DNA of 64,000 bases from a bacterium. GTDB lineage: Bacteria > Hydrothermota > UBA3073 > JACQXS01 > JAQTXJ01. Both the position numbers and the translations under genes were made by a program. Position 1 is the stretch's first letter; each line of letters starts with the position of its first letter. Below the pieces are notes generated by a model. The model was not told the origin of the DNA, searched no databases, and saw nothing but the letters and a program-made list of their open reading frames with translations. Positions 2,349 to 36,720 of this stretch are shown here, piece by piece. The stretch covers positions 130,234 to 194,233 of the forward strand of contig JAQUPX010000004.1 of assembly GCA_028716385.1 (NCBI GenBank), written 5' to 3'.

Positions 2349-3062
2349 ATGGATATAAACTGGAAAGCGTTTTATGAAAAAGAAGCAGGTTTCAAGAGGT
2401 TTATCCCGGAGGAACAACCCGTAAACGTTAGAGGACAATTTATAAGCGAGTTGATTCCTGAAGGTGTTAATACCGTTCTTGATGTCGGTTGTGGGGATGG
2501 ATGGTTATGTAATAAATTAAGCAATAAGTATAAAGTTGCGGGTGTAGATATAGCTTTCCCGCGAGTTGCTTATGCAAAATCTCATTTTAAGAGCGAAGCA
2601 TTTTTAGTGAGTAATATTTATAATTTACCTTTCCCTGATAATTCCTACGATGCGGTTATCTGCAGCGAGACTTTAGAACATATAGAAGATTTTTCATCCG
2701 CGGTTAAAGAACTAATTCGCGTATCTAAAAAATACGTAGTTGCTACGGTTCCGAATAACCAGCCTAAAAGGACGATTTTGTGCCCGCATTGTCTACATAC
2801 TTTTTATCTGGATGGACATATTAATTCTTTTGATGAAAAAAGTTTTGCAGAAGTTTTTGGTAATTTTGGGAAAGTAATTAAGGTAAAAGATAGCACACAA
2901 ATGGGGTTATTTAATCCCAATAAAAAACATCATATAGAGTTTCCCAATTTCGTTTCACAAAATTTACATATCTGGAATTTTTTGCTTTCCCTTGGCTCAA
3001 GATTTTTTCCCATCACGGTAAGAAACGGAGATTTCCTTGGGATTGTGTGTGGAAAGAGGTAA
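2349..3062 (+). CDS. class I SAM-dependent methyltransferase
   Basis: It has the VLDVGCGDGW motif I and a Methyltransf_11-like layout. Confidence 0.8.
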   Translation: MDINWKAFYEKEAGFKRFIPEEQPVNVRGQFISELIPEGVNTVLDVGCGDGWLCNKLSNKYKVAGVDIAFPRVAYAKSHFKSEAFLVSNIYNLPFPDNSYDAVICSETLEHIEDFSSAVKELIRVSKKYVVATVPNNQPKRTILCPHCLHTFYLDGHINSFDEKSFAEVFGNFGKVIKVKDSTQMGLFNPNKKHHIEFPNFVSQNLHIWNFLLSLGSRFFPITVRNGDFLGIVCGKR

Positions 3063-3083: not shown

Positions 3084-3115
3084 GCCTGTCTGCCGGTAGG
3101 CAGGGATTGGCACGG
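3084..3115. repeat. GC-rich palindromic repeat (gcctgtctgccggtaggcaggg + attggcacgg)
   Basis: This is an imperfect copy of the CCTGCCTGCCGGCAGGCAGG palindrome that recurs at 4774, 14375, 16111 and 35002. Confidence 0.6.
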
Positions 3116-3367
3116 GTAGAATAAAAAAGAAGTTTTAACAGGGATTTGAAGAGACTAGTACGAGATTGAAAATAAAAAGAAAGCGAAAATTATATTGTAA
3201 AAACGATAACAAATGATATATACGAAAAATATGGAAAAGGATTAACTAATTGTTTATTATAATCCGTGTATATTCCGCCTGAGGCGGACTAAAATTTAGT
3301 ATAGTGTTTTCTTGTAATATTTTTTATTCATAAGTATAGTAGCAAAAAAGGTAATCAATTAACTGAT

Positions 3368-4600: not shown

Positions 4601-4920
4601 ATTACAGAATGAAACCACAAAAACGAATACAAAAAGAATTATTGCCACGGATAACAGACACAGATTTCCACGGATTAACAAAAAAAAACAAAAAAAGTAT
4701 AACCAAAAGAGTTTATGAGATTACAGATAGAAAAGAAAAACCAGAAAGAATTATTGCCACGGATAACAGACACGCCTGCCTGCCGGCAAGGCAGGGATTT
4801 CCACGGATTAACAAAAAAAAACAAAAAGAGTATAACCAAAAGAGTTTATGAGATTACAGATAGAAAAGAAAAACCAGAAAGAATTATTGCCACGGATAAC
4901 AGACACAGATTTCCACGGAT
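4601..4920 (+). repeat. tandem repeat, about 2.7 units of 112 bp, purine-rich, each unit containing GCCACGGATAACAGACAC…ATTTCCACGGATT
   Basis: Motif starts fall at 4644, 4756 and 4889 (periods 112 and 133). Unit 2 carries a 23-nt GC palindrome insertion at 4774-4796 that units 1 and 3 lack. Confidence 0.85.
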
Positions 4921-12264: not shown

Positions 12265-14364
12265 TTGGAAACGATATTTATTTTAGCGGGAATATTAACA
12301 TCTGCTACGCCTGTAATACCTTTAACATCCTCAGCATCGGTAGAGTCTACGGAATCCGTAAAAACATATCCCAAAATTACCGACAGTGTTTATGTCTTAC
12401 CTAAGGCGGACAGTCTGGTCATTCTTCAAAAAGGTGGGCAAGCCCTCAAAAAGAAAGACGGGCAGGCTCTCCAAAAGAAAGAGGGAACGTCCACGTATAA
12501 AGGGGATACTTTAGTTTATATGTGGAATGATAAGGTAATATGGTTAAAGGGGGATGCGAATATAAAGACTCCGGAAGTAAGAGCAAATGCGGACACAATA
12601 AAATACGAATTGAATAATGAAATTGTTACGATATGGGGAAATCCGGTTTTGTGGGTTGGCAGCCAGGACTCAATTACAGGTAGAAAGATGAAATATAATT
12701 TGCAAACGGAACAGGGAGTTATTTTAGATGGCAGGACGAAAATGGACAAGGGCTGGTTTGAAGGTAGAATCATAAGAAAAGTAGATACAAGCGCATTAAA
12801 TATAGATTATGGGAAATTTACAACCTGTGAAAGAAGACCACCGCATTATTATTTTTGGGCAAGAGAGTTAAAAGTATATATAGACGATATGATTTATTTA
12901 AAACCTCTTGTATTTTTTGTAGGTGAAATACCTCTTTTTGCGGCACCTTTCTGGTGGTTCCCAATTAAAAAGGGCAGGCAATCGGGGTGGCTGCATCTTC
13001 CAAAAGTAGGTAGTTCATCGGACAAGGGAAAATACATAGAAAACTTATCTTATTATTGGGTAACGAATAAATATTCGGATATTACGGCTACGCTTAATTA
13101 CTTTGAGATACAGGGGTTGCAAAGTTTACTTGAAGGGAGATGGGTTTTTTCGCAGTATTCCAGTGGAGGATTGAACGGGTCGTATATAAAAGAAAGAGAT
13201 ACGGGAGGGCAAAAGGGGAATGAGCGTTGGATGCTGCAATTAAACCACTCCCAGAAAATGGCATCAAGGATGTCTTTAATAGTAAGGGGGAATTTTGAAA
13301 GCGATACAAAGTATGAAACTGATTATAGCGATACGACAGTAGTAAAACTTGATAAAATAATAGACTCATATATGTCTATGAATAAATCCTGGGACAGGGC
13401 TTCCGTTAACTTAATTGTCAGGGAAAGAAAAAATTTAGCTGATACGACAGAAAATAGTGTTCAGAGAACAATTCCCGGAATAACTTACGGGTTAACGCCT
13501 ATTCGTATTTCAAAAGGGTATTTTTCTTATTCGGGAGGAATATCAAACTTAAAATCAGGCACTTTGGATTATCAACAAACATGGGACAACAGTGCAACAT
13601 TTACTCTTCCGTTTAATATTTTTAGGTATATTGCAATTTCTCCATCTACGGGACATAGTTATAGTTTCAAGAAACCAATTCCAAATGTGAAACCATATCA
13701 CTCAAGATATAGTGTAACGGCTTCTACGAATATATACGGAAAGTCCATTTTTAAGCCCGAAATCAGGCATATAAGTTCTCCCAATATTAGTTTTTCATTA
13801 GTAGATACTACAAAATCTCTTTCTTTTGGCGTAAATAATGAATTCCAGTTTGTGTATGGCGAGAAAAAAATCAGTCTTGGGGCAATAAATCTATCGGGGA
13901 ACCGGGATTTTGTGCATAACAAATTTAACGATATAAATATTTATTCTTATTCAAGGGCGATACCGTTAGTAGATTTACAGGCATATTCTACTTATAAGAC
14001 ATCTGAAAAGAAATTAAAATTTGACCGTTTGACAGTGGGGTCAAGTTTGGTACGTAAGACTTTTAATCTTTCTACGACTTATAGCTGGGTTCCTGATACG
14101 CTTGATGAACGAAAAAGTATATGGGGAACGCTTAATGTTAATTTAACGAGAAACTGGAAAGCGTCAATGGCAAGAAGGTATGACATTGTTAATAAAAATA
14201 CGATAGAAGAAAGTTACTCCCTGTATAGAGATTTGCATTGTTGGGATATAGCATTTAGTTTTAATAAATATGGGGAGAACTGGAAGTATAATGTCCAGAT
14301 AAAATTAAAAGCATTGCCCGAGATAAAGTATGAGAAACATTATGAGTCTACAGGGATTGAGTAA
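12265..14364 (+). CDS. LptD-like LPS-assembly outer membrane protein (OstA-like N-terminal domain + beta-barrel)
   Basis: An OstA/LptA-like N-terminal domain (GDTLVYMWNDKVIWLKGDANI…) is followed by a long aromatic-rich body typical of a beta-barrel. The start is uncertain: TTG at 12265 with no signal peptide. Confidence 0.5.
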   Translation: METIFILAGILTSATPVIPLTSSASVESTESVKTYPKITDSVYVLPKADSLVILQKGGQALKKKDGQALQKKEGTSTYKGDTLVYMWNDKVIWLKGDANIKTPEVRANADTIKYELNNEIVTIWGNPVLWVGSQDSITGRKMKYNLQTEQGVILDGRTKMDKGWFEGRIIRKVDTSALNIDYGKFTTCERRPPHYYFWARELKVYIDDMIYLKPLVFFVGEIPLFAAPFWWFPIKKGRQSGWLHLPKVGSSSDKGKYIENLSYYWVTNKYSDITATLNYFEIQGLQSLLEGRWVFSQYSSGGLNGSYIKERDTGGQKGNERWMLQLNHSQKMASRMSLIVRGNFESDTKYETDYSDTTVVKLDKIIDSYMSMNKSWDRASVNLIVRERKNLADTTENSVQRTIPGITYGLTPIRISKGYFSYSGGISNLKSGTLDYQQTWDNSATFTLPFNIFRYIAISPSTGHSYSFKKPIPNVKPYHSRYSVTASTNIYGKSIFKPEIRHISSPNISFSLVDTTKSLSFGVNNEFQFVYGEKKISLGAINLSGNRDFVHNKFNDINIYSYSRAIPLVDLQAYSTYKTSEKKLKFDRLTVGSSLVRKTFNLSTTYSWVPDTLDERKSIWGTLNVNLTRNWKASMARRYDIVNKNTIEESYSLYRDLHCWDIAFSFNKYGENWKYNVQIKLKALPEIKYEKHYESTGIE

Positions 14365-14374
14365 TAAAGATTTT

Positions 14375-14396
14375 GCCTGCCTGACGGGAGGTAGGG
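14375..14396. repeat. degenerate copy of GC palindrome (gcctgcctgacgggaggtaggg)
   Basis: It has the same core as 4774-4796 and lies immediately 3' of the LptD-like gene. Confidence 0.5.
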
Positions 14397-16090: not shown

Positions 16091-16146
16091 TAGCTACGGA
16101 TAACAGACACGCCTGCCTGCCGGCAAGGCAGGGATTTACACGGATT
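16091..16146 (+). repeat. repeat element: TAGCTACGGATAACAGACAC + GC palindrome (16111-16133) + GATTTACACGGATT
   Basis: It is near-identical to unit 2 of the tandem repeat at 4756-4810. Confidence 0.8.
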
Positions 16147-22467: not shown

Positions 22468-24138
22468 TTATTTAAGGAGAAGAAGCAGTATGGAACTTAC
22501 TACAAGAGTTGCGATGGTAATTGGTGCGCAGACTTTTAAGTAATTAAAAAATGTAATTTTATATCCTCGTTTTTCCGCTAATCCTGCGGTTACGATATTT
22601 GCGGAAGCTCCGACTAATGTTCCATTTCCGCCCAAACAAGCGCCAAGCGCAAGCGCCCACCATAAAGTATTTCCTGCGCCGGGAATTGTGTGTGTCAGAT
22701 ATCCAACTACCGGTAGCATTGTTGCGGTAAATGGGATATTATCCACGATACTTGAAGCAATTGCGGACACCCAGATAATCAATAAGATAGCAGTAGTTAT
22801 ATTTCCACCGGACATCTTGCTTACCGAATTTGCAATCATTTGTATTAGACCTGTGCTTTCTGCGGCTCCGACCACAATAAACAACATCATAAAGAAGACA
22901 AGTGTAGGCCATTCGACTTCTTTCTCAAGGATATCGACGATATTTACCTTGCTTATCAAAAGCAAAAGGGAAGCTCCGACTAAAGCCGCAATGCTAACTT
23001 CCATATGTAAAAATCCGTGAGTTATAAACATAAGAATCACAATTCCTAAGACGATTAAGCTTTTCTTGAGTAGCTGACTATCCGTTATCTTGTATTCTTC
23101 TTTTAGTTTTTTCAAAAGTTCGTCAACGTTATCTATTTTTGCTTTTGCGTATTCTTTACCAAAATAAAACTTCATCATAAATATTAATACAAACATACAG
23201 ACTATTACTATTGGAGCAAGGTGGACTACAAACTGATTAAATGTAAGTCCCGCATAAGAGCCTATCATAATGTTTGGCGGGTCGCCGATTATTGTTGCTG
23301 TCCCACCGATGTTTGAAGCAAGAATCTCAGGGAGGAGGAAGCTAAAAGGATTAATACCAAGAACCACTGCAATTTCAATGGTAACCGGGGCGATAAGAAG
23401 CATAGTAGTTACATTGTCTAAAAAAGCGGATGCGATTGCCGTTATGACAGTAAGAAGAACTACTAAAATCCAGATATTTCCTTTTGCAAGCCGGTAAGAT
23501 TTATAGGCAAGCCACTGGAAGACACCCGTGATTTTCATTATGCCGACAATAATCATCATCCCGAAGAGGAGAAAGACGACATTAAGGTCAATAAATTTCA
23601 TCGCATCTTCAAAGGAAATTATGAAGTATCCCTTATTGAATGAGCCAAAAGTGTATGTGATTAAAAGTATAAGAGCTGCTCCGAGAGAGGCAGCAAGGGT
23701 TCTGTGGCATAAATCAAACCCGATAAGTATGTAAACGAGTAGTAATATAATAACGGATATATAGAAAGCAGGTCCTAAAATATGGTCAATTGTAATATTG
23801 GAGAATAAAGAATAAGTTCCTTCTTTATAGGCTAGTTGAGACTTTTCTATTTCTAATTTATTATTACGATAAGTAGGTTTAGAAGTTTTAATTTCAATAT
23901 TATTAAGGGATTGTAAACTATCAATTTGAATAATAAAACTCCCATCAGAAGAGGTTTTTTCGGTTTTATAATATTTGCCGTCAATTGAAACATCCAATTC
24001 TGCATCGGAAATGAGTTTATTGTAGGAGTCAATTACTTTGCCTGAGATGTTTAGTTTGTTTAAGCTGTCTTGTCCCGTTACTGCAAAGGAATTGTAAGCA
24101 AATAAGAAGAGGCTAAGGAATAATATCTTTTTCAGCAT
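22468..24138 (-). CDS. fusion protein: signal peptide + carboxypeptidase-regulatory-like beta-sandwich domain + ArsB/NhaD (ion transporter superfamily) permease, copy 1
   Basis: The N-terminus (ISGKVIDSYNKLISDAELDVSIDGKYYKTEKTSSDGSF) is CarboxypepD_reg-like. The remainder is a 10-12-TM ArsB/NhaD-type permease (…GNTLWWALALGACLGGNGTLVGASANIV…). Confidence 0.7.
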   Translation of the reverse strand: MLKKILFLSLFLFAYNSFAVTGQDSLNKLNISGKVIDSYNKLISDAELDVSIDGKYYKTEKTSSDGSFIIQIDSLQSLNNIEIKTSKPTYRNNKLEIEKSQLAYKEGTYSLFSNITIDHILGPAFYISVIILLLVYILIGFDLCHRTLAASLGAALILLITYTFGSFNKGYFIISFEDAMKFIDLNVVFLLFGMMIIVGIMKITGVFQWLAYKSYRLAKGNIWILVVLLTVITAIASAFLDNVTTMLLIAPVTIEIAVVLGINPFSFLLPEILASNIGGTATIIGDPPNIMIGSYAGLTFNQFVVHLAPIVIVCMFVLIFMMKFYFGKEYAKAKIDNVDELLKKLKEEYKITDSQLLKKSLIVLGIVILMFITHGFLHMEVSIAALVGASLLLLISKVNIVDILEKEVEWPTLVFFMMLFIVVGAAESTGLIQMIANSVSKMSGGNITTAILLIIWVSAIASSIVDNIPFTATMLPVVGYLTHTIPGAGNTLWWALALGACLGGNGTLVGASANIVTAGLAEKRGYKITFFNYLKVCAPITIATLVVSSILLLLLK

Positions 24139-24554: not shown

Positions 24555-26225
24555 TTATTTAAGGAGGAGCAGTAATATGGAGCTTACTACAAGAGTAGCG
24601 AGGGTAATCGGGGCACAAACTTTCAAGTAATTAAAGAATGTAATTTTGTAACCTCGTTTTTCTGCTAATCCGGCGGTTACGATATTTGCCGAAGCACCGA
24701 CTAATGTTCCATTCCCGCCCAAACAAGCGCCAAGTGAAAGCGCCCACCATAAAGTGTTTCCTGCACCGGGAATGGTATGTGTGAGATATGCCACTATTGG
24801 CAGCATTGTTGCGGTAAATGGAATATTATCTATTATACTTGAAGCAATACCTGAGACCCATATAATTAGCAAGATAGCGATAGTCAGGTTTCCACCCGAT
24901 AATTTGCTTACGGAATTGGCAATCATTTGTATTAGTCCTGTGCTTTCTGCGGCTCCGACCACAATAAACAACATCATAAAGAATATAAGCGTAGGCCATT
25001 CGACTTCTTTTTCCAGCACTTCAACAATATTTACTTTGCTTATCATAAGAAGTAGTGATGCTCCGACTAAAGCCGCAATGCTCACTTCCATATGCAAGAA
25101 CCCGTGAGTTATAAACATAAGGATCACAATTCCTAAAACGATTAAACTTTTCTTGAGTAACTGACTATCGGTTATTTTGTATTCTTCTTTTAGCTTTTTC
25201 AGAAGCGCATCAACGTTTTCTATTTTTGCTTTTGCATACTCTTTGCCAAAATAAAACTTTATCAGAACCAACAATACGACCATACAAACTATTATTATTG
25301 GTGTAAGGTGTACGACAAACTGGTTAAAAGTAAGTCCCGCATAAGAGCCTATCATAATGTTTGGTGGGTCGCCGATGAGAGTTGCAGTCCCGCCCATATT
25401 GGAAGCCATAATCTCGGGAAGAAGGAAACTGAAGGGATTGATTCCAAGTATCATTGTAATTTCAAGAGTAACCGGGGCAATGAGAAGCATAGTCGTTACA
25501 TTATCCAAAAAAGCCGATACTATTGCCGTAATAACGCTAAGAAGAATTACCAAAGTTAGGATGTTCCCTTTTGCAAGCTGGTAAGACTTGTAGGCAAGCC
25601 ACTGGAATACACCCGTGATTTTCATTATGCCGACAATAATCATCATCCCGAAAAGAAGGAAAATGACGTTAAGGTCAATAGCTTTCATAGCATCTTCAAA
25701 GGAAATAACGAAGTATCCTTGATTGAATGAGCCAAAAGTGTATGTTACGAGAAGTACAAGAGCTGCTCCAAGAGAGGCAGCAAGCGTTCTGTGACATAAA
25801 TCAAACCCGATGAGTATATAAACGAGTAGTAATATAATAACGGATATATAGAAAGCAGGTCCTAAAATATGGTCAATTGTGATATCTGAGAAAAAAGAAT
25901 AAGTTCCTTCTTTATAAGCTAGTTGAGACTTTTCTATTTCTAATTTATTATTACGATAAGTAGGTTTAGAAGTTTTAATTTCAATATTATTAAGGGATTG
26001 TAAACTATCAATTTGAATAATAAAACTCCCATCAGAAGAGGTTTTTTCGGTTTTATAATATTTGCCGTCAATTGAAACATCCAATTCTGCATCGGAGATG
26101 AGTTTATTGTAGGAGTCAATTACTTTGCCTGAAATGTTTAGTTTATTTAAGCTGTCTTGTCCCGTTACTGCAAAGGAATTGTAAGCAAATAAGAAGAGGC
26201 TAAGGAAAAATATCTTTTTTAACAT
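24555..26225 (-). CDS. fusion protein: carboxypeptidase-regulatory-like domain + ArsB/NhaD permease, copy 2 (tandem paralogue)
   Basis: It is 556 aa, the same length as copy 1, and collinear with it, with roughly 90% aa identity by eye. Confidence 0.7.
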   Translation of the reverse strand: MLKKIFFLSLFLFAYNSFAVTGQDSLNKLNISGKVIDSYNKLISDAELDVSIDGKYYKTEKTSSDGSFIIQIDSLQSLNNIEIKTSKPTYRNNKLEIEKSQLAYKEGTYSFFSDITIDHILGPAFYISVIILLLVYILIGFDLCHRTLAASLGAALVLLVTYTFGSFNQGYFVISFEDAMKAIDLNVIFLLFGMMIIVGIMKITGVFQWLAYKSYQLAKGNILTLVILLSVITAIVSAFLDNVTTMLLIAPVTLEITMILGINPFSFLLPEIMASNMGGTATLIGDPPNIMIGSYAGLTFNQFVVHLTPIIIVCMVVLLVLIKFYFGKEYAKAKIENVDALLKKLKEEYKITDSQLLKKSLIVLGIVILMFITHGFLHMEVSIAALVGASLLLMISKVNIVEVLEKEVEWPTLIFFMMLFIVVGAAESTGLIQMIANSVSKLSGGNLTIAILLIIWVSGIASSIIDNIPFTATMLPIVAYLTHTIPGAGNTLWWALSLGACLGGNGTLVGASANIVTAGLAEKRGYKITFFNYLKVCAPITLATLVVSSILLLLLK

Positions 26226-28541: not shown

Positions 28542-28790
28542 ATGAAAAAATCAGAAGGAGAGGAATTTGTAATCATTTTTGAAGGGCAGCAAATGGATGC
28601 CATTTTTCTAAAGGGTTTATTAGAGCAAGAGGAAATCCCGGTATTTTTAAAAGATGAAATAATGGGAAGTATGTATCCGTCATTTGTTGTTGGGGGAGTT
28701 AAAGTTATTATCAGGAAAGAAGACCTTGAAAAGGCGCAGCCTATAATCAGGGAGTTTTCAGACAACCATTACGAAAAGCCACAGGATTAG
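28542..28790 (+). CDS. DUF2007-domain protein
   Basis: The 82-aa ORF has a small alpha/beta domain (…EIPVFLKDE…). Confidence 0.5.
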   Translation: MKKSEGEEFVIIFEGQQMDAIFLKGLLEQEEIPVFLKDEIMGSMYPSFVVGGVKVIIRKEDLEKAQPIIREFSDNHYEKPQD

Positions 28791-28798
28791 ATAATTTT

Positions 28799-31700
28799 CT
28801 ATTGCATAATCACAAATTTTCTGGTAGCGGTAAATTCACCGGCTTTTAGTTTATAGAAATAAACCCCCGAAGGCAATTTCTTCCTTTCCAGTTTCACTTT
28901 TTTATAACCCGGAGTTTCATATTTATTTACTAAGGTATTTACTTTTTGTCCTAATAAGTTGTAAACATTCAATTCGACCAATGAAGCTTCCGGAAGTGAA
29001 TATTTAATTTCCGTTTCTAGTTTAAATGGGTTGGGTTCATTAGAGAACAGTTCATATTTTCGTGGGAGTATCATTCCCGTATCTTCAACCCCAGGAGAAA
29101 GGAGCCATTCTACAATTCTGTGCATAAGTTCATTTCTTGTTGATGCCAAATCTATTGCTTCAAAGCCAAATGGCAGAGTAACTGTTTTCCAGAGTGCAGA
29201 ATTATAATTAAACGCAACTCCTGCATATCCTTCCCCTGTATAATCTTTATATTTGAAAATAGAATCTTTTACCCCGGGTCCACCAGTTTTAAGCGCTGAT
29301 TGCATAAACTGATTATTGGCCCCGGTTCCGCCTTCTATTGCAAAGGTAAGCCCATTGCTTATGTATTTTCCGTTTATTCCGATTACTGTATCTATATTAA
29401 TTCCGGTAATTACTTTATTGATTCCCAGTCTTGAAAAAATACCAACGTCAGATATTCCCTGACTGGACAAAAATAATTTTCCTTTATGAGGATAAAGATA
29501 AAGGTTTATATTGTTTTGTTCTTCCGTTGAAAAAGCAGTTGAATTGTAATATTCCGGTTCCCATAAAACACTATCGCAGGTTGTTCCTGTAAGCCAGATA
29601 ACAATAGAATATTGATTTAAGATGGAAGTATCGGGAGAGCCGTAACAAAATACATCCCACACATCGTAAGTATAGCTGTTAGCATCAAGCGCTTCGGTAT
29701 AGTATTTTTCATAAGGTTTTGTATTCCCTAATGGCGGTCTATTATAGTTATCATCATCTACGACAAGAATAGTAGCCGTTTTTGCAAATGTTTTTGTAGT
29801 AAATTCCATTAGATTGACGTATTGTTTTTTATTCCCGAGTTTATCTTTTGCCGTAAGGTTTACATTGTAAAACTTTTCCTGAGCAGTCGGTGTTATCCAT
29901 GAATTACCATAAATGTTATCTCCTGCCAGGATATCAGCATGTGTCCCATCATCGTAGAAATTAATGTTTGTTATGGTTGTTCCTATTGGGCTTTCAATAT
30001 TAACGACAACAGAATCCACTCCGGAGCCATCTATAAGTGTAGCTCTTAAAATAACCATAGAGCCTGCCGACAGTAAAGGTGAAATTACCGTTGGAGAATG
30101 CAAAAACGGACCTTTATCATCCGTAATTTCGAGGTCAATAGTATCTTTCCATTCTCCGACAGTTGAGTCGCGGAGTGTAAGAATTAGCGGGACGGTAGTG
30201 TCATACGCATCTTCAAAAATTTTTATTTTATAATTCTGAACGATTGTTTGTCCCGTATCAAGGGTGCCTAAGATATGTGTTGTATCCAATATTTTTATAT
30301 AAGATGGTGCAGTTAGTGTTCCCAATATACCATATATAGGGCAGATTCCTTTATTTTTAATCGTAATTTCTATATTTACCGAGTCGTTTGGCGATAGGAT
30401 AGTATCTGAACCTTGAATTTGCCAGTTATCTATCACAAGTGGGCCCATAGTAGTGAAGGTTGAGCCATTATTTATTAAAGTTGTATCTCCCAAATTATCT
30501 TTCGCAAAAACATCTATAAAATAATGTTTTCCACTTGAAGAAGTTTTCCATATATTCCCGTAAGTATGGTCATTAGACGAACCGTCATTATGTAATCCAT
30601 CGTCATAAAGTTGTATATTTGTGCATAAGCTTTCATCAGGAGATTCTATATCCGCACTAATTGTTTGTATTCCATCTTTATCATAACTATATGCGAGTAT
30701 CGTTACCGAATCTCCCGGGTTTACGACGGGTGGAATTGCTTTAATCCCATTAACAATAGGGCATTGAGGGAGGTATCCGTTATTGAATTGTGTTATTGCA
30801 TTTTGTGCATTTTTTTTCAAATCAGTTAAATTATCTGCACACACGACAGCAATTGTAAAATCTACTTCTTCGCCCGGTTGTAATAGAGTATAAGGTCCGG
30901 AAGAAGATAATTGTCTTACATCACGGGGGGTATCAATTGAGCAAAACGTTGTTTGTTTTAATTTTTCGTATTTTAATGAGTCTTGTCCGTCTCTATCCAC
31001 AAGGGAATCTGTTAGTGTCCACGATGAGAATCCGGTAAATCCAATATTCCCCGGGGTCTCACATAATATGCATCCTATATATCCGGCGGTAGTTTTCCAA
31101 TCTTTCTCATAGCCATCGGAATCAAAAGAATAACCAAGGTTTAATGTTTTATCATACCCTATTAAGTCATCATTACATCCCCCGCCGATAGTATCATATC
31201 CTATGTCATTATCCATAAAATATCCGAAATATACATTTTTCAGGGGGAACGAATTCATATTTTTAATTTTATAATTGATATAAATATAGTTTTTATTTTC
31301 CGGCATATTAAACGAGTAAGTTCTTTGTTCCACTCTTATACCGAGTCCCATACTGCCATAAGGCCCTATATCGTTAACCCATATAACCATTGCATCTTCT
31401 GCCGGAATCCAGTCTCCGGAAACGGCGTAAGTATCTTCATTTGAAATAATATCTCCTTTTGCGGGGTCAAGTTGCATGTCCATAGGTCGGCGCGAGTTTA
31501 TAGTTGTATCTGCAAAACACCATAATGCCTGATAGGCTTCTTTGGACATACCGGGTTGTTTAAAAACAAGATTCCCCTCGTGTGTATACCCGTGAGGTAA
31601 TAATTGACTGCTGAACGTTAATCCTTTGACTCCAATATCTCCTGCTTCGCCGGCATTTTGAAGTTCAGGAATGGACATTGCGCCAATATCAGATTGATAA

Positions 31701-32149
31701 GCACCTCTACTTAAATTTGGTGTCCATACTGTGTCTCCGCTTGAAGAGTCCACAACGGGATATAGGGCGCCAATCCAAGGGCCTGCTTCATAAACATAAT
31801 ATTGTTGGGAATCAGCAGGGTATTCACCTGTTTTTCCACGTGTTAGCGAATTATTATAATATACTGACATTCTTGTTTGCTGTTCATATGATGCATCGTA
31901 TTTACTTATAGAATCAGTTGGGGGGCGAGCAAATAAGCCACCCTGGAGTGTATTTGAAACAGTCCAGTCGCGTAGATTACCAACTCCCGTCCAGTATAAT
32001 ACCCACCAGTCTGCAGGTTTATCAGTAATTATGCCTTTGTTATGAATTGTTTTTTTATTTAATTCTAATTTGCTTGAGTTATAGCACCATCCGGTATTTA
32101 TGCAAAAATTAGAAATTAAAATTGCCAATAAAATTTTACCTTTTTTCAT
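28799..32149 (-). CDS. large secreted multidomain protein with T9SS (Por) C-terminal sorting domain
   Basis: It has a signal peptide, a GGGAGG Shine-Dalgarno upstream, and a C-terminal …NPFKLETEIKYSLPEASLVELNVYNLLGQKV…GVYFYKLKAG…ATRKFVIMQ segment that matches the Por_Secre_tail pattern. Confidence 0.6.
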   Translation of the reverse strand: MKKGKILLAILISNFCINTGWCYNSSKLELNKKTIHNKGIITDKPADWWVLYWTGVGNLRDWTVSNTLQGGLFARPPTDSISKYDASYEQQTRMSVYYNNSLTRGKTGEYPADSQQYYVYEAGPWIGALYPVVDSSSGDTVWTPNLSRGAYQSDIGAMSIPELQNAGEAGDIGVKGLTFSSQLLPHGYTHEGNLVFKQPGMSKEAYQALWCFADTTINSRRPMDMQLDPAKGDIISNEDTYAVSGDWIPAEDAMVIWVNDIGPYGSMGLGIRVEQRTYSFNMPENKNYIYINYKIKNMNSFPLKNVYFGYFMDNDIGYDTIGGGCNDDLIGYDKTLNLGYSFDSDGYEKDWKTTAGYIGCILCETPGNIGFTGFSSWTLTDSLVDRDGQDSLKYEKLKQTTFCSIDTPRDVRQLSSSGPYTLLQPGEEVDFTIAVVCADNLTDLKKNAQNAITQFNNGYLPQCPIVNGIKAIPPVVNPGDSVTILAYSYDKDGIQTISADIESPDESLCTNIQLYDDGLHNDGSSNDHTYGNIWKTSSSGKHYFIDVFAKDNLGDTTLINNGSTFTTMGPLVIDNWQIQGSDTILSPNDSVNIEITIKNKGICPIYGILGTLTAPSYIKILDTTHILGTLDTGQTIVQNYKIKIFEDAYDTTVPLILTLRDSTVGEWKDTIDLEITDDKGPFLHSPTVISPLLSAGSMVILRATLIDGSGVDSVVVNIESPIGTTITNINFYDDGTHADILAGDNIYGNSWITPTAQEKFYNVNLTAKDKLGNKKQYVNLMEFTTKTFAKTATILVVDDDNYNRPPLGNTKPYEKYYTEALDANSYTYDVWDVFCYGSPDTSILNQYSIVIWLTGTTCDSVLWEPEYYNSTAFSTEEQNNINLYLYPHKGKLFLSSQGISDVGIFSRLGINKVITGINIDTVIGINGKYISNGLTFAIEGGTGANNQFMQSALKTGGPGVKDSIFKYKDYTGEGYAGVAFNYNSALWKTVTLPFGFEAIDLASTRNELMHRIVEWLLSPGVEDTGMILPRKYELFSNEPNPFKLETEIKYSLPEASLVELNVYNLLGQKVNTLVNKYETPGYKKVKLERKKLPSGVYFYKLKAGEFTATRKFVIMQ

Positions 32150-32252: not shown

Positions 32253-34787
32253 CTACCTCATCAGCACAAGTTTTTGAGTTTCTCTATAGTTACCTGCCTG
32301 AAATTTAGCAAAATAGATACCCGATTTTAGTTTTTCCGAATTTATTTCTGACGTATAATGACCTAAATTTTTTATTTCATTCACCAATGTTTTTACGCAT
32401 CTGCCGGAGATATCGTATAGTTTTAAAGACACGTTAGTTGCGGTTGGCAAATAATAGCTAATGGTTGTTGATTTCGAGAACGGGTTCGGATAATTCTTAT
32501 ATAGTGTGAAGACTTTATCGGTTGTTTTTTCCTCAAAAGCCGGGCCGTGTTTCGAGGAATAACATACATAAGCATTTATCATCAAGTCACCCGGTAATTT
32601 TTTATTCTTTCCATAATCTAGCGTCCAGCCTGTATCCGTAGCCGTATAATCGTAATAATTAACAACATTTTCATAAGTCACATTTTTGGAGTGGCTTGAG
32701 TCCGTGCATAATGCAATACCCAACCATTGAGATGGATGTGGGGAGGAGACGGTTATGTAAAATTCCTCATCCATTGCGATAGAAGAGTCGAAATCAATGT
32801 ATTCCCAATCCGGGGAAAAATGAGATGCCGTAATTTGTTTCTGACAAACAAGGGAGGTAGGGTATCCTTCATAGTCATCCGTATATACTGAGATTACAAG
32901 GTCTGTTGAATTGGATGTGCTATCTTTATATAGCATTACGCGGGCTTTTTTTAGCGTGCAAAGTTCTGCAGGCTGGAATCTTACGGCATAACTCCAGATA
33001 CTATCAGGATTTCCTCTGTATCCCGGGTAATAATGGTATTGAGGAAAACTATCGTCATATGCTAAAAGATACAATCCTGTATCCGGCTCAACTATTCCGA
33101 CAGAATCAAAAGCAGCTTTTATTACGGATTCAATATTGGAATAGGCTGATGGATAAAGGTCAATAGCGGATTGGATTAATGAATATCTTAAATCAATAAA
33201 ATATGAAGTCTGGACAAGGTAAGTTGTTAATGCCCTATACCATAGTTGTTCGGTTGTATCTTTAGTGATTAAGTTACTCATAAGGTAGCCTGCGTGAGCG
33301 GGGATTAGCATATTATAATGAACTCCTCCATTATCCGTACTGGAGTTTTTGGGATAATATATATATTCTCTCATATGGACAGGAAGTGGTCTTGTCCCGC
33401 CACCCCCATTGTGAGGATTTGTCAAATCTCTTAATGCATCTCCCGGGGTTCCGGGGGTATAACAGTCTTCTCCTGTGAGCCAGTCTTCTCTATCAATCAT
33501 ACAACCGAAGAAATCCGAGAATGCTTCATTAAGTGCGCCGTGTTGTCCAAGATATACAAGGTCTGCGGTTGATTGGATTACGGCGTGAGTCATTTCATGT
33601 GCCGTAACATCGAGAGCTCCTGCAAGACAGGAGAGCAAAGAGTCGTCACCATCTCCGAAAACCATATATCTACCATTCCAGGAAGCATTATTATAATTAT
33701 GCAAGTAGTGGACTACGCTTAATAGTGAAGCACCCGAATCATTCCAGCTATTCCTGTCGAAGGTGTTGTAATAGTATGTGTAAACGCTATCCATATTATA
33801 TTGTGCGCTTACTCCTGCGGGCAAACGTGAATTGTCATTGAAATTTTTATCTCCGTTAGGGTCTACTATAAGAGTCGCGGAATCAGTTCGCCACTTGTCA
33901 TGACAATCCCATGCGCTTATTGTCCCGTTGGTGTAGTTTTTTCGTAACGTATCGCGGTTAGGTAAAGCTCCTTGCCACATTGGTTTTGAGACATTGACAA
34001 GATAGTAATTATCGGACGATTGGTATATACTGAGATTTACGGTATCTCCGTTAACAAGAATACCCGTTCCGTCCGTTTCGCCATCGTATTTAATATTATC
34101 GTATTTGAATATAACGTTAGGATTTTTTGCATCTATAAAATATTCCCAGTCTCCCTGTGGAAATTCGGTTTTTAGGTTTACATTCCATACAAGAAAGTAT
34201 TGGCCATTAGTATTATAAATAGTGAGTTTACAGGTTGGCTCTTGTAAAAAATCCCCGGTATGTTTTAAGTCTTCTTTAGCTTTTGCAATGGCCATTTGTG
34301 CCGGAACCGTTGGAGTTACGTCAATAGTGGGGGTGGGCTCATACCTACCGTTAACCAGATATATATTGGAATTTTTATCAAAATGGACTATAAGTTGGCT
34401 TGCCCATATAGGAACTTCTTTATAGTACTGGTCTAATTTTAGATGAGTCATTCCTAATTTGTCTTTATTTTGAGTATGTAATTTTAATTCACTTGTGGGG
34501 TCGCTTAGTTTGAAAAGTTCCTTATATTTTCCTATAAATTCAATTGCATTTGCCATTTTATCTGCTTTAGACGTAGTTGAAAAGGTACCTTTTAGAAAAG
34601 TGAGGGTACCATTATCTCCATTAAATTTAACGTCTATTTTTTGTTTAGAATCATTTTTTAATGTCTGTATTAAAGTTTCTTGATTATTTACCGGTTCTTT
34701 TTTATTTTGGGGTAGTTTTTTACTCATACCGTATAAAGAAACCGTAGATAGGCAGATAATAAAAAGATACAACGATATTTTATTCAT
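32253..34787 (-). CDS. M4 (thermolysin-like) zinc metalloprotease with propeptide and T9SS C-terminal sorting domain
   Basis: VTAHEMTHAV…NEAFSD matches the thermolysin HExxH…E zinc motif. The C-terminus is NPFSKSTTISYYLPTATNVSLKLYDISGRCV…GIYFAKFQAGNYRETQKLVLMR. The start was set at the internal ATG at 34787, which has AAGGAGG 5 nt upstream and a signal peptide MNKISLYLFIICL; the ORF track extends to 34853. Confidence 0.8.
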   Translation of the reverse strand: MNKISLYLFIICLSTVSLYGMSKKLPQNKKEPVNNQETLIQTLKNDSKQKIDVKFNGDNGTLTFLKGTFSTTSKADKMANAIEFIGKYKELFKLSDPTSELKLHTQNKDKLGMTHLKLDQYYKEVPIWASQLIVHFDKNSNIYLVNGRYEPTPTIDVTPTVPAQMAIAKAKEDLKHTGDFLQEPTCKLTIYNTNGQYFLVWNVNLKTEFPQGDWEYFIDAKNPNVIFKYDNIKYDGETDGTGILVNGDTVNLSIYQSSDNYYLVNVSKPMWQGALPNRDTLRKNYTNGTISAWDCHDKWRTDSATLIVDPNGDKNFNDNSRLPAGVSAQYNMDSVYTYYYNTFDRNSWNDSGASLLSVVHYLHNYNNASWNGRYMVFGDGDDSLLSCLAGALDVTAHEMTHAVIQSTADLVYLGQHGALNEAFSDFFGCMIDREDWLTGEDCYTPGTPGDALRDLTNPHNGGGGTRPLPVHMREYIYYPKNSSTDNGGVHYNMLIPAHAGYLMSNLITKDTTEQLWYRALTTYLVQTSYFIDLRYSLIQSAIDLYPSAYSNIESVIKAAFDSVGIVEPDTGLYLLAYDDSFPQYHYYPGYRGNPDSIWSYAVRFQPAELCTLKKARVMLYKDSTSNSTDLVISVYTDDYEGYPTSLVCQKQITASHFSPDWEYIDFDSSIAMDEEFYITVSSPHPSQWLGIALCTDSSHSKNVTYENVVNYYDYTATDTGWTLDYGKNKKLPGDLMINAYVCYSSKHGPAFEEKTTDKVFTLYKNYPNPFSKSTTISYYLPTATNVSLKLYDISGRCVKTLVNEIKNLGHYTSEINSEKLKSGIYFAKFQAGNYRETQKLVLMR

Positions 34788-34979
34788 TCGACCTCCTTTT
34801 TTAAATAGTGAGTTTATAAATATATATGTGTGGCGAAATAGGTGTCTTGTCAATGCCTTTTATTTGTTTTTTCGTGGAATAAACATTAAGAATTATTGAT
34901 AAATAATTAAGTTGACAGTTAAGAATATTTTTTTAATATGTAAAATTAAATAAGGATAAAGGGAAAAATAAAAAATGAT

Positions 34980-35033
34980 GCCCCTGTAGCTCAGATGGAT
35001 ACCTGCCTGCCGGCAGGCAGGGAGCACCGGTTT
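34980..35033 (+). pseudogene. partial 5' copy of tRNA-Arg (acceptor, D-arm, 5' anticodon stem) interrupted by a 20-nt perfect palindrome
   Basis: gcccctgtagctcagatggata + [cctgcctgccggcaggcagg] + gagcaccggttt is identical to tRNA positions 1-33 apart from the insertion at 35002-35021. It diverges after the anticodon stem. Confidence 0.75.
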
Positions 35034-35046
35034 AAGGCGGTAATAG

Positions 35047-35310
35047 TTGACAAATATGTATGTTTATGTAATAACAAACGATAAGAAAAGAATATATGTT
35101 GGAATGTCAAAAGACCCTAAAAATCGTTTAATAGAACATAATGCAGGGAAAACAAAGTCAACAAAAGGATTTAGACCATGGAAGTTGATGTATATTCAAG
35201 AATGTAAAGATCGGGTGGAAGGAAGAAAACTTGAGAAAAACTTAAAATCCGGATCAAAAAAGGAAGAATTAAAAAAGATGTTAAAATGCCCCTGTAGCTC
35301 AGATGGATAG
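35047..35310 (+). CDS. small GIY-YIG nuclease-domain protein (YhbQ/UPF0213-like)
   Basis: The 87-aa ORF carries YVYVITNDKKRIYVGMSKDPKNRLIEHNAG, the GIY-x10-YVG…R…E…N core. Its 3' end overlaps the first 23 nt of the tRNA. Confidence 0.72.
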   Translation: MTNMYVYVITNDKKRIYVGMSKDPKNRLIEHNAGKTKSTKGFRPWKLMYIQECKDRVEGRKLEKNLKSGSKKEELKKMLKCPCSSDG

Positions 35311-35361
35311 AGCACCGGTTTCCTAAATCGGTTGTCGCGCGTTCGACTCGCGCCAGGGGTA
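35288..35361 (+). tRNA. tRNA-Arg (anticodon CCU)
   Basis: Manual fold gives a 7-bp acceptor gcccctg/caggggt, D-arm gctc-agatggata-gagc, anticodon stem ccggt/atcgg with loop ttCCTaa, V-loop ttgtc and T-arm gcgcg-ttcgact-cgcgc. CCA is not encoded. Confidence 0.85.
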
Positions 35362-35412
35362 GTATTAAAAATTAATCCGCCTGAGGCGGAGCAAAAATAA
35401 AAAGGGGTTAAA

Positions 35413-36720
35413 ATGAAAGCATATATAGAAAAAATTGCGGATTATAAGGATAAAGAGGTAGAAATTAGTGGCTGGTTGTATAACAAACGTTCAAGCGGGA
35501 AAATACATTTTCTTGAAGTTCGTGACGGGACCGGATTTATACAGGTAGTTGTGGTAAAAGGACAGGTAGATGAAGGGGTGTTTGAACTTTGCGATAAAAT
35601 TTCACAGGAATCTTCAATTAAAGTTGTTGGTAATGTCAGGGAAGAACCTCGCGCGCCGGGAGGATACGAATTAGACTTGAAATCCATCCAGGTTATAGCG
35701 CAGGCAGAGGTTTACCCGTTACAGAAAAAAGAGCATGGCATTGATTTCCTTTTATCGAACAGGCATTTATGGCTCAGGTCAAAAGCGCCGTGGGCAATTA
35801 TCAGAATCAGAGACGAAGTAATTCGTAGTATTATAGATTTTTTTCACTCAAAAGACTTTATTAAATTAGATGCTCCTATTTTTACCCCTTCTGCCTGTGA
35901 AGGCACTACGACTCTTTTTGAGGTCCCTTATTTTGACCAGAAAGTTTATTTATCTCAATCTGGCCAGTTGTATGGGGAAGCAGGATGTATGGCATTTAAT
36001 AAGATATATACATTCGGACCTACTTTCCGTGCGGAAGCTTCCAAGACTCGTAGGCATCTTACCGAGTTCTGGCAAATAGAACCTGAAGTTGCTTATGCAA
36101 AGCTTGATGACATTATGGAGTTAGCAGAACAATTTGTGACTTATATAGTCCAGAGAGTCCTTGCAAATAGGCAGAAAGAACTTAAAATGTTAGAAAGAGA
36201 TGTTACTATACTTGAAAAAATAAAAGTGCCTTTTTATCGTATAAGCTACAGTGAGGCAATTGAAATGGTTAAAAAACAGTCTGTTTCAGGGGGGGAAGTC
36301 CCTATACTTCAATGGGGAGATGATTTTGGGGCTCCACAGGAAACATATATAGCTTCTCAATTTGATAAACCAGTTTTTGTGCATCGTTATCCTACAAAAT
36401 GTAAAGCATTTTATATGAAACCTGACCCTGAAAACCCTGATGTTGTGTTATGTACGGATTTGCTTGCTTCCGAAGGTTATGGAGAAATAATAGGTGGCTC
36501 GCAAAGAGAAGAAAATATACAAGCATTAGAGAAAAAAATAGAAAAAGAAGGCTTGCCCAAAGAAGCCCATGAATGGTATCTTGATTTAAGAAGATATGGT
36601 TCTGTCCCACATTCGGGATTTGGACTTGGTCTTGAAAGATTAGTAACTTGGATATGTGGATTACATCATATTCGTGAAACGATACCATTTCCAAGAACTA
36701 TAGATAGGGTGTCCCCATAA
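35413..36720 (+). CDS. asnS: asparagine--tRNA ligase (class IIb; could be an archaeal-type AspRS)
   Basis: It has an N-terminal OB anticodon-binding domain and the class II motifs FRAEASKTRRHLTEFWQIEPE and GGSQREE. Its length of 435 aa is typical of short AsnRS. Confidence 0.72.
   Translation: MKAYIEKIADYKDKEVEISGWLYNKRSSGKIHFLEVRDGTGFIQVVVVKGQVDEGVFELCDKISQESSIKVVGNVREEPRAPGGYELDLKSIQVIAQAEVYPLQKKEHGIDFLLSNRHLWLRSKAPWAIIRIRDEVIRSIIDFFHSKDFIKLDAPIFTPSACEGTTTLFEVPYFDQKVYLSQSGQLYGEAGCMAFNKIYTFGPTFRAEASKTRRHLTEFWQIEPEVAYAKLDDIMELAEQFVTYIVQRVLANRQKELKMLERDVTILEKIKVPFYRISYSEAIEMVKKQSVSGGEVPILQWGDDFGAPQETYIASQFDKPVFVHRYPTKCKAFYMKPDPENPDVVLCTDLLASEGYGEIIGGSQREENIQALEKKIEKEGLPKEAHEWYLDLRRYGSVPHSGFGLGLERLVTWICGLHHIRETIPFPRTIDRVSP

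Follow-up and report, generated by a model that had tools for sequence, protein, structure and literature searches.

The DNA considered here, a window of 64,000 nt (the whole stretch analysed; contig JAQUPX010000004.1 of assembly GCA_028716385.1, from a bacterium of the Hydrothermota), carries at its only transfer RNA (tRNA) gene a small module that belongs to a recurrent type of cassette, apparently not yet described, residing at tRNA genes in many bacterial phyla. The module comprises three parts: a minimal GIY-YIG nuclease gene, a truncated or whole copy of the local tRNA that is interrupted by a 20-nt palindrome (hereafter PAL), and one uninterrupted, functional tRNA. Comparison of its loci revealed that the module can be present or absent, varies in copy number, switches targets and is under purifying selection. 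The reading that we favour, with a confidence somewhat short of even, is that of a selfish minimal nuclease-plus-palindrome cassette living at tRNA genes, mostly those for tRNA-Arg.

Architecture and recurrence of the module

The components of the module in the window, with the open reading frame (ORF) of the nuclease, are the following.

34912-34939, plus strand: sigma-70-like promoter (TTGACA, 16 nt, TAATAT) 5' of the tRNA fragment; consensus scan, 10/12; same in the relative L158
34980-35001, plus strand: exact repeat of nt 1-22 of tRNA-Arg(CCU), covering the 5' strands of acceptor and D stem and the D loop; repeat comparison
35002-35021, no strand: PAL, a 20-nt perfect palindrome, CCTGCCTGCCGGCAGGCAGG, between D-loop GGATA and D-stem GAGC; sequence
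35022-35045, plus strand: copy of tRNA nt 23-34 (exact at 35022-35033), then a degenerate anticodon-arm remnant, AAGGCGGT, without anticodon; repeat comparison
35056-35310, plus strand: ORF of the GIY-YIG nuclease, 84 aa with the ATG start or 87 aa with an alternative TTG at 35047; Pfam PF01541, 1.9e-16
35288-35361, plus strand: intact tRNA-Arg(CCU), sole tRNA gene of the window; ARAGORN, and Rfam tRNA at 61.3 bits

The intact gene, which ARAGORN places at 35287-35362 as tRNA-Arg(CCT), was recognised correctly in the preliminary description of this DNA, as was the palindrome exactly between GGATA and GAGC and its absence from the functional copy. That description also reported an exact 33-nt copy of the 5' part of the tRNA upstream; the copy is real, but its exact part totals 34 nt, is split 22+12 by PAL and ends just 5' of the anticodon. 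The "aaaatg" leader said to be duplicated is out of register: the two copies share no more than the "at" that precedes G1. Divergence at the anticodon loop held in part: the exact match does end before the anticodon, but after GGTTT the upstream copy continues as AAGGCGGT, which resembles an anticodon arm with the anticodon CCT deleted, two substitutions and a 4-bp stem retained. No T arm or 3' acceptor strand was seen downstream of the upstream copy, and the tRNA scan suggested earlier returned one intact tRNA, with the upstream copy truncated and traceable only as far as this degenerate arm. The TAA|GG junction of the upstream copy is also present in the relatives L003, L004 and L158 (L numbers denote loci and contigs used for comparison). 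Neither a group I intron nor any other Rfam family besides tRNA matched positions 34500-35700 at E values up to 10.

As had been noted, the GIY-YIG ORF (87 aa from TTG) reads into the tRNA, which contains its last seven sense codons and its stop codon. It is the only ORF between the repeats, and the element holds no integrase (tyrosine or serine recombinase). The module is flanked by ordinary genes, for an M4 peptidase and an asparaginyl-tRNA synthetase (AsnRS), which are collinear with those of L158, and the earlier alternative of a remnant of a larger island was dropped on these grounds. The consensus scan found no promoter-like site between the ORF and the tRNA; the site at 34912-34939 is presumably the original tRNA promoter, which would now drive the fragment, the ORF and the tRNA as a single transcript.

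Relatives of the protein were sought by scanning one genome per species, which yielded 265 among 185,579 species genomes; 80 loci were fetched, and the counts below refer to 81 loci for the type of the adjacent tRNA and to 82 loci for the placement of PAL. The loci belong mostly to Bacteroidota, with others in WOR-3, Stahlbacteria, Chlorobiota, Planctomycetia, Omnitrophota and Elusimicrobia. The next same-strand tRNA 3' of the ORF is a tRNA-Arg in 63 of the 81 loci (Arg-CCT in 35, Arg-TCT in 14, Arg-ACG in 9, Arg-TCG in 4 and Arg-CCG in 1); it is tRNA-Met in six loci and tRNA-Lys in one, and in eight loci a tRNA-Arg stands just 5' of the ORF instead. The position of the tRNA relative to the end of the ORF is usually -24 to +15 nt. 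Most loci carry a copy of the 5' end of the local tRNA 75-100 nt upstream of the ORF, followed by PAL. The same architecture of about 300 bp is found in dozens of unrelated genomes, which bears out the early proposal of a minimal GIY-YIG cassette at tRNA genes; likewise, the further copies of the ORF that were to be looked for do recur beside tRNA genes, mostly with a PAL-interrupted 5' tRNA fragment.

Among the closest protein relatives, several C-terminal ends consist of translated tRNA, and one ends in translated PAL (...CPCSSEGYLPAGRQGAPVS). Two metagenome contigs illustrate the usual layout: L001 contains at least two tandem units, each with the 5' part of a tRNA-Arg(CCT) bearing PAL in the D loop and then the ORF, and in L002 a PAL-bearing fragment is followed by the ORF and an intact tRNA-Arg(TCG). 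Not all loci keep this order: in L078, L042, L004 and L038 the intact tRNA comes first and a full-length PAL-bearing copy last. At L055 (2930-3400), PAL-bearing 5' and 3' fragments of one tRNA-Arg(CCT) type (GCCCCTG...) flank the ORF, and the intact tRNA-Arg(CCT) between the PAL-bearing remnants is of a different sequence (GCGCCTG...). The right end of the fragment varies between loci from about tRNA position 28 to 56; a crossover exactly in the anticodon loop, as proposed for the window, is therefore not a general feature. At a few loci the ORF lies beside a tRNA with no recognisable PAL (e.g., L046, L049, L058, L060, L066, L068 and L069). A more distant GIY-YIG clade, 41% identical, keeps the same fragment-PAL-ORF layout.

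This distant clade (EHNFGNSKYTKGHRPY, 41% identity) was also met on a viral contig, L114 (480-900), again as fragment, PAL and ORF. The sequence after the ORF there begins like the same tRNA and then differs, and ARAGORN calls no tRNA in it.

The palindrome, the nuclease and the variability of their loci

PAL is the most conserved part of the module rather than an accident. Among 78 twenty-mers its arms (CCTGCCT/AGGCAGG, at positions 1-7 and 14-20) are essentially invariant, nearly all variation being confined to positions 8, 9, 12 and 13, with three changes at position 5, and protein identity is only ~50% across loci with invariant arms. Longer variants keep the outer arms around an interior grown to 27-54 nt. 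The arms show no compensatory variation, and this favours specific recognition of their sequence over a need for hairpin formation alone; the GIY-YIG protein, being the only conserved partner in sight, would then be the partner that recognises PAL. As RNA, PAL in the window is predicted to fold into an 8-bp hairpin stacked on the D stem. An intrinsic terminator was considered and rejected, a T run being absent downstream.

The placement of PAL is similarly regular. It lies within 160 nt 5' of the ORF start in 61 of the 82 loci, at a median distance of 24 nt from the start codon. Within tRNA copies it occupies mainly loop or junction positions: the D loop at 21/22 (70 cases) or position 26/27 (19 cases), other sites being the D loop at 18/19, the anticodon loop at 38/39, the variable loop and the T loop. 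The functional tRNA copy is never PAL-interrupted in related loci. The palindrome had at first been taken for a separate acquisition of the upstream copy, a view that its conservation and its recurrence at the same D-loop position in most loci overturn. Copies of PAL within 600 nt of the ORF number 117 in 115 kb searched (76 of 82 loci), those further out in the same loci 4 in 339 kb, and those in tRNA-Arg loci without the ORF 0 in 308 kb; the enrichment around the ORFs, within 600 nt versus further out, is ~86-fold.

Other GC-rich palindromes stand beside PAL or replace it in some tRNA fragments (L038 at ~2806-2835, L056 at 3256-3345, and L051 upstream of the ORF; examples are CCCGCCCGAACGTACCGTTCGGTACGGGCGG and CCTGCCCGCC...GGCAGGCGGG), and sister palindrome families may exist.

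Comparison of filled and empty sites indicates that PAL is a discrete insertion. The sequence TTAATC[PAL]TGCGTC of L004/L125 has a PAL-less paralogue, TTAATCTGCGTC, and target duplication is absent. The window itself, at 36% G+C, contains five PAL-like copies in 64 kb (at 3085, 4775, 14376, 16112 and 35002), and no shuffle of the window yielded a PAL match within three mismatches. Apart from the copy at 35002, these are solo copies.

3085-3104, no strand: degenerate PAL (CCTGTCTGCCGGTAGGCAGG), 23 nt past the stop codon of ORF 2349-3062; sequence search
4775-4795, no strand: 21-nt variant of PAL (CCTGCCTGCCGGCAAGGCAGG) within the second of three tandem repeat units; sequence comparison
14376-14395, no strand: degenerate PAL (CCTGCCTGACGGGAGGTAGG), 12 nt past the stop codon of ORF 12265-14364; sequence search
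16112-16132, no strand: 21-nt variant of PAL whose flanks equal those of the 4775 copy (acggataacagacacg / gattt.cacggatt); sequence comparison

The intergenic region 4633-4920 consists of three tandem units of ~112-133 bp, and PAL is present only in unit 2 (cagacacG[PAL]gatttcc); units 1 and 3 repeat the sequence without PAL (cagacacAgatttcc, at ~4660 and 4906), and the window therefore holds both filled and empty PAL sites. Since the 16112 copy shares its immediate flanks with the 4775 copy, a larger repeat family (acggataacagacac...gatttccacggatt) exists. A target-site-duplicating transposon was rejected as an explanation of PAL on account of the clean filled/empty pair, which shows no duplication.

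Exact copies of PAL were also found in 35 viral-contig stretches, mostly solo and in GC-rich DNA, the family ORF mostly not being within 1.5 kb. In these contigs (L083-L117) a solo PAL often sits between short direct repeats, such as cacagaga[PAL]cacagaga and ttgcgga[PAL]ttgcgga; the repeats probably pre-exist and are not target duplications, because comparable repeats also occur in the PAL-less units of the window. Two of the contigs (L107 at 2239-2330 and L084 at ~8616) contain a tRNA-Met(CAT) with PAL in the variable loop, called by ARAGORN as a 92-nt tRNA, and have no GIY-YIG ORF within 1.5 kb.

The 84-aa form of the nuclease is identical to the database protein P0001 and matches the Pfam GIY-YIG family PF01541 at 60.6 bits against a cut-off of 22.6 (E 1.9e-16); matches to NCBIfam are sub-threshold only. 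Among 75 sequences, the catalytic residues Y4, H28 and E60 are invariant, and Y14, G16, R24 and N29 are conserved in at least 90%. The family also has an invariant motif of its own, EHN[AS]GKTKSTKG[FY]xPW. The AlphaFold2 (AF2) model, with a predicted local distance difference test (pLDDT) score of 87.6, comprises the core fold only (strands 2-7, 13-18 and 43-49; helices 21-29, 53-64 and 66-77), corresponding to a predicted beta-beta-alpha-beta-alpha GIY-YIG core. The closest sequence matches are 1ywl (2.3e-10) and 1zg2 (2.7e-9), both UPF0213, followed by Slx1 (5.7e-6), and the top two Foldseek hits are 1zg2 and 1ywl, in keeping with the YhbQ-like assignment made earlier; the match to I-TevI is marginal (E 0.014 over 27 residues). 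The family core measures 78-85 aa and is a catalytic domain alone, with no accessory domain. Stand-alone Slx1-like domains of prokaryotes have been described as the minimal form (Dunin-Horkawicz et al. 2006; PMC1564403).

The variability of the loci was assessed at several levels of relatedness. A metagenome scan for the 5' sequence of this tRNA, in which an insert in the D loop was allowed, gave 55 contigs; the ORF and PAL are missing from 51 of them, and the same four carry both. One contig, L152, has tRNA-Arg, a 110-nt spacer and tRNA-Val, with neither ORF nor PAL, and L125 (identical to L004) has the module between the same tRNA-Arg/tRNA-Val pair, with flanks 93% identical to L152 over 4.6 kb; by this alignment the two represent an empty and a filled site, of the kind that the preliminary description had proposed to look for. 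Unit number differs between L142 and L003, which are 99.9% identical, and tandem arrays comprise three ORF units in L067, from the isolate Cyclobacterium plantarum GBPx2, and two units in L011, at tRNA-Met. L061 and L034 contain arrays of the fragment and PAL without the ORF. Targets are mixed within protein subfamilies defined at >=60% identity: one occupies Arg-CCT (29), ACG (3), TCG (1) and CCG (1), and a second Arg-TCT (12), Met (6), ACG (3) and Lys (1). At L044 (Lys) and L011 (Met) the fragment matches the local tRNA.

The module is stable as well. L158 aligns with the window over 13.5 kb at 85-88% identity and has the same module, the same genes around it, the same promoter and a single substitution in the fragment. 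The ratio of nonsynonymous to synonymous substitution rates (dN/dS) of the ORF is 0.09 between the window and L158 (dS 0.24), and 0.13 for L003 versus L004. Given so low a dN/dS and an unchanged location in a relative of 86% identity, the insertion is not recent in this lineage. Upstream flanks are syntenic among many loci, across families, whereas downstream flanks are not. Taken together, the dN/dS, the conserved catalytic positions and the confident fold model argue strongly that the protein is functional.

Readings of the module and known systems

If the module is a selfish cassette, it may work as follows. The native tRNA promoter would, in the usual layout, to which the window conforms, read through the PAL-bearing 5' fragment, which would serve as the leader of the ORF, and transcription would run on through the ORF into the intact tRNA, which RNase P could release. 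PAL would be both a cis site recognised by a dimeric nuclease and the unit that is copied into structured loop-coding DNA, mostly near the nuclease gene, with tRNA genes as the preferred targets. Only lineages keeping or regaining one uninterrupted tRNA copy would survive, and the duplication accompanying every insertion is proposed to result from this selection for a working copy. Tandem expansion, rearrangement and scarless deletion could then arise whenever the tRNA repeats recombine. We infer in particular the binding or cutting of PAL or the tRNA-gene DNA by the nuclease, its driving role in insertion, and the co-transcription of the entire unit.

We regard as possible, albeit doubtful, a bolder version in which PAL is a miniature mobile element composed of two 7-10-bp inverted repeats only, copied near its own gene by a minimal 80-residue Slx1-like GIY-YIG nuclease and preying on tRNA genes, the nuclease gene surviving between wrecked and intact copies. 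Its logic would be like that of repetitive extragenic palindromic (REP) sequences and their RAYT transposases, or that of a natural "cleave and rescue" arrangement, and such a pairing of a GIY-YIG nuclease with a palindrome would be a prokaryotic mobile element of a new class.

Several points weigh against the selfish cassette. Contact of the protein with PAL or with tRNA genes is hypothetical. The functional and the interrupted tRNA copy agree in their D-loop sequence, yet the functional one is never hit, which requires selection or some immunity. Retention in the 86%-identical relative and the strong purifying selection fit a useful host gene equally, and the upstream synteny across families can be read as vertical inheritance. 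Solo copies of PAL away from the ORF are rare (four in 339 kb), the 35 viral-contig stretches with exact PAL mostly have no family ORF nearby, and neither target-site duplication nor any other transposase signature was seen. The family protein, of 79-85 aa, lacks the separate DNA-binding domain of I-TevI-type GIY-YIG enzymes. Finally, the ORF had no tblastn match on plasmids or phages at 1e-8, and a pattern scan of IMG/VR revealed no relatives; plasmid or phage copies not having been found, no transfer vehicle is known.

The strongest rival, which we nevertheless consider unlikely, is a host function: the small GIY-YIG protein would be a resident factor of tRNA or RNA metabolism co-expressed with tRNA-Arg, the PAL-bearing fragment an autoregulatory leader hairpin bound as RNA or DNA, and the scattered PALs additional sites of binding or 3' hairpins of the REP kind. 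Strong purifying selection would be natural for such a factor, as would its persistence in two genomes of 86% identity. PAL always lies inside the presumed leader, 12-98 nt 5' of the start codon, where its predicted RNA hairpin stacks on the D stem; two window copies are found just past stop codons, upstream synteny is kept across families, and one prokaryotic Slx1-like GIY-YIG domain is fused to a TrmH-type tRNA Gm18 (D-loop) methyltransferase, from which a role in RNA metabolism was suggested (PMC1564403). A resident factor would, however, hardly be as sporadic as this one (265 among 185,579 species genomes, with 51 of 55 loci of the same tRNA 5' sequence lacking the module), nor would it be expected to leave an empty site in a 93%-identical relative, to form tandem arrays of varying copy number, or to occupy different tRNA genes within one protein subfamily. 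Moreover, PAL is found at several loop positions and in pseudo-copies 3' of the tRNA, which are unable to act as leaders.

It is rather improbable that PAL and the ORF are independent of each other, PAL being a stand-alone miniature palindromic repeat that is moved by another enzyme or by recombination and accumulates in dispensable tRNA pseudo-copies, and the ORF a separate, free-standing gene of the homing type whose insertion duplicates a portion of the tRNA. The exact PALs of the 35 viral-contig stretches, mostly GC-rich and mostly with no family ORF within 1.5 kb, and the few tRNA-adjacent ORFs without a recognisable PAL would be accounted for in this way. The ~86-fold enrichment of PAL within 600 nt of the ORFs and its absence from 308 kb of ORF-less tRNA-Arg loci would not, and the same holds for arms that are invariant across phyla where only the GIY-YIG protein co-varies in presence, and for the same ORF-PAL pairing in the distant clade at 41% identity.

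We give little credence to an addictive module of toxin and RNA decoy, comparable to type III toxin-antitoxin systems, in which the nuclease attacks tRNA-Arg or its gene and the upstream, PAL-blocked tRNA-like repeats are uncleavable pseudo-substrates. Arrays of PAL-bearing fragments directly 5' of the ORF on the same strand (L061, L034 and L067; one unit in the window) are suggestive of it, PAL at loop positions would leave a tRNA-like fold intact, and a sporadic distribution combined with purifying selection on the protein would be expected. At most loci, however, there is one truncated fragment, limited to the 5' acceptor strand and the D arm, which cannot adopt a tRNA-like fold, PAL occurs in non-tRNA DNA as well, PADLOC matched no known defence system, and, to our knowledge, the GIY-YIG enzymes characterised so far act on DNA. 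Ordinary decay, either of a tandem tRNA-Arg pair whose upstream copy has rotted beside an unrelated ORF or of an integrase-type island reduced to a stump, would suit the truncated upstream copy with its traceable anticodon-arm remnant but is highly improbable given the same ORF family, palindrome and D-loop position in dozens of unrelated genomes, the lack of an integrase or island between collinear flanks, and the purifying selection on the ORF.

The module is neither a classical homing endonuclease gene nor an integrase-type insertion. Like homing endonuclease genes (I-TevI, the T4 Seg proteins), it has the GIY-YIG fold in a small, selfish-looking gene at a highly conserved target, a sporadic distribution, and filled and empty alleles in close relatives. 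Unlike them, it encodes a catalytic domain only, closest to UPF0213/Slx1, its target is partly duplicated with one copy uninterrupted, and it combines a conserved palindrome with persistence under purifying selection. PAL interrupts one tRNA copy, and an uninterrupted copy of the same sequence, a putative recognition site of the nuclease, remains 300 bp away. The homing-type cassette proposed earlier thus stands as regards the specialisation on tRNA genes but not as regards the protein, which is a catalytic domain alone, or the presumed target, of which an uninterrupted copy is kept.

With integrase-type islands and prophages at tRNA genes the module has in common its kind of insertion site, the direct repetition of a tRNA segment and the preservation of tRNA function. 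Such islands normally repeat the 3' part of the tRNA; the module, in contrast, repeats the 5' part, interrupts the repeat with PAL, measures ~300 bp and has no integrase. Group I introns reportedly occur in the anticodon loops of bacterial tRNAs, including tRNA-Arg(CCU) (Reinhold-Hurek and Shub 1992), the same tRNA species with a discontinuity in the same region, and they can carry GIY-YIG ORFs. No intron RNA was detected in the module, however, the whole tRNA rather than a 3' exon follows the ORF, and the intervening sequence is almost entirely ORF. The UPF0213 (YhbQ-like)/Slx1 proteins provide the best sequence and fold matches but differ in that the module protein has a clade-specific invariant motif and a fixed genomic partnership with PAL and tRNA genes; no report of such a partnership for YhbQ or Slx1 was found in open-access literature.

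In its logic the module is closest to REP/RAYT systems and to free-standing homing endonuclease genes, failing a defining feature of each. According to two accounts of REP/REPIN-RAYT systems (bioRxiv 10.1101/2021.07.10.451892; PMC3337134), these likewise pair a nuclease-type gene, as a rule in one copy, with short conserved palindromes on its flanks, and show long persistence in lineages and no target duplication; the solo PALs may correspond to their scattered non-autonomous intergenic palindromes. Unlike the RAYT enzymes, which are HUH/Y1 transposases, the enzyme of the module is a GIY-YIG protein; its PALs cluster within a few hundred bases of the gene instead of being spread genome-wide, and the association with tRNA genes and their loops has no REP/RAYT counterpart. 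No published description of the module or of the palindrome was found in open-access text.

Should the selfish-cassette reading prove true, a tiny gene annotated only as "GIY-YIG nuclease family protein" would define a widespread selfish module of Bacteroidota, WOR-3, Omnitrophota and other phyla, one that reshapes tRNA loci through pseudo-copies and tandem arrays. It would provide a first biological context for the stand-alone Slx1/UPF0213 nucleases of prokaryotes and would account for odd "intron-containing" or broken tRNA calls in genome annotation. A 20-bp site unchanged across phyla would imply specific and compact protein-DNA or protein-RNA recognition, which is possibly useful. Cultured carriers exist (among them Cyclobacterium plantarum, Pedobacter planticolens LMG 31464, Sphingobacterium lumbrici and Litoribacter ruber) and make the idea directly testable.

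Further features of the window

One additional element adjoins the tRNA gene.

35376-35390, no strand: hairpin TCCGCCTGAGGCGGA just 3' of the tRNA; second identical copy at 3274-3288

This short palindrome thus occurs twice in the window (3274-3288 and 35376-35390), where none is expected by chance. Because one copy lies 14 nt past tRNA-Arg and the other 170 nt past the PAL-like copy at 3085, both are downstream of a PAL. Positions 3145-3240, which follow the degenerate PAL (3085) and precede the hairpin copy (3274), resemble the C-terminal part of GIY-YIG family proteins weakly (E 0.04) and with an interrupting stop codon; this stretch may represent a decayed second module. Besides this weak remnant and the GIY-YIG domain of UvrC itself, the window contains no further copies of the GIY-YIG ORF.

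Two differences or repetitions among neighbouring genes were observed on the minus strand. The ORF at 28799-32149 (1116 aa) is missing from the otherwise collinear L158, where the equivalents of window positions 28789 and 32258 adjoin, and it is either an insertion in the lineage of the window or a deletion in L158. The neighbouring ORFs at 22468-24138 and 24555-26225 are paralogues of 556 aa each, to both of which the first 1.2 kb of L158 aligns at ~85% identity.

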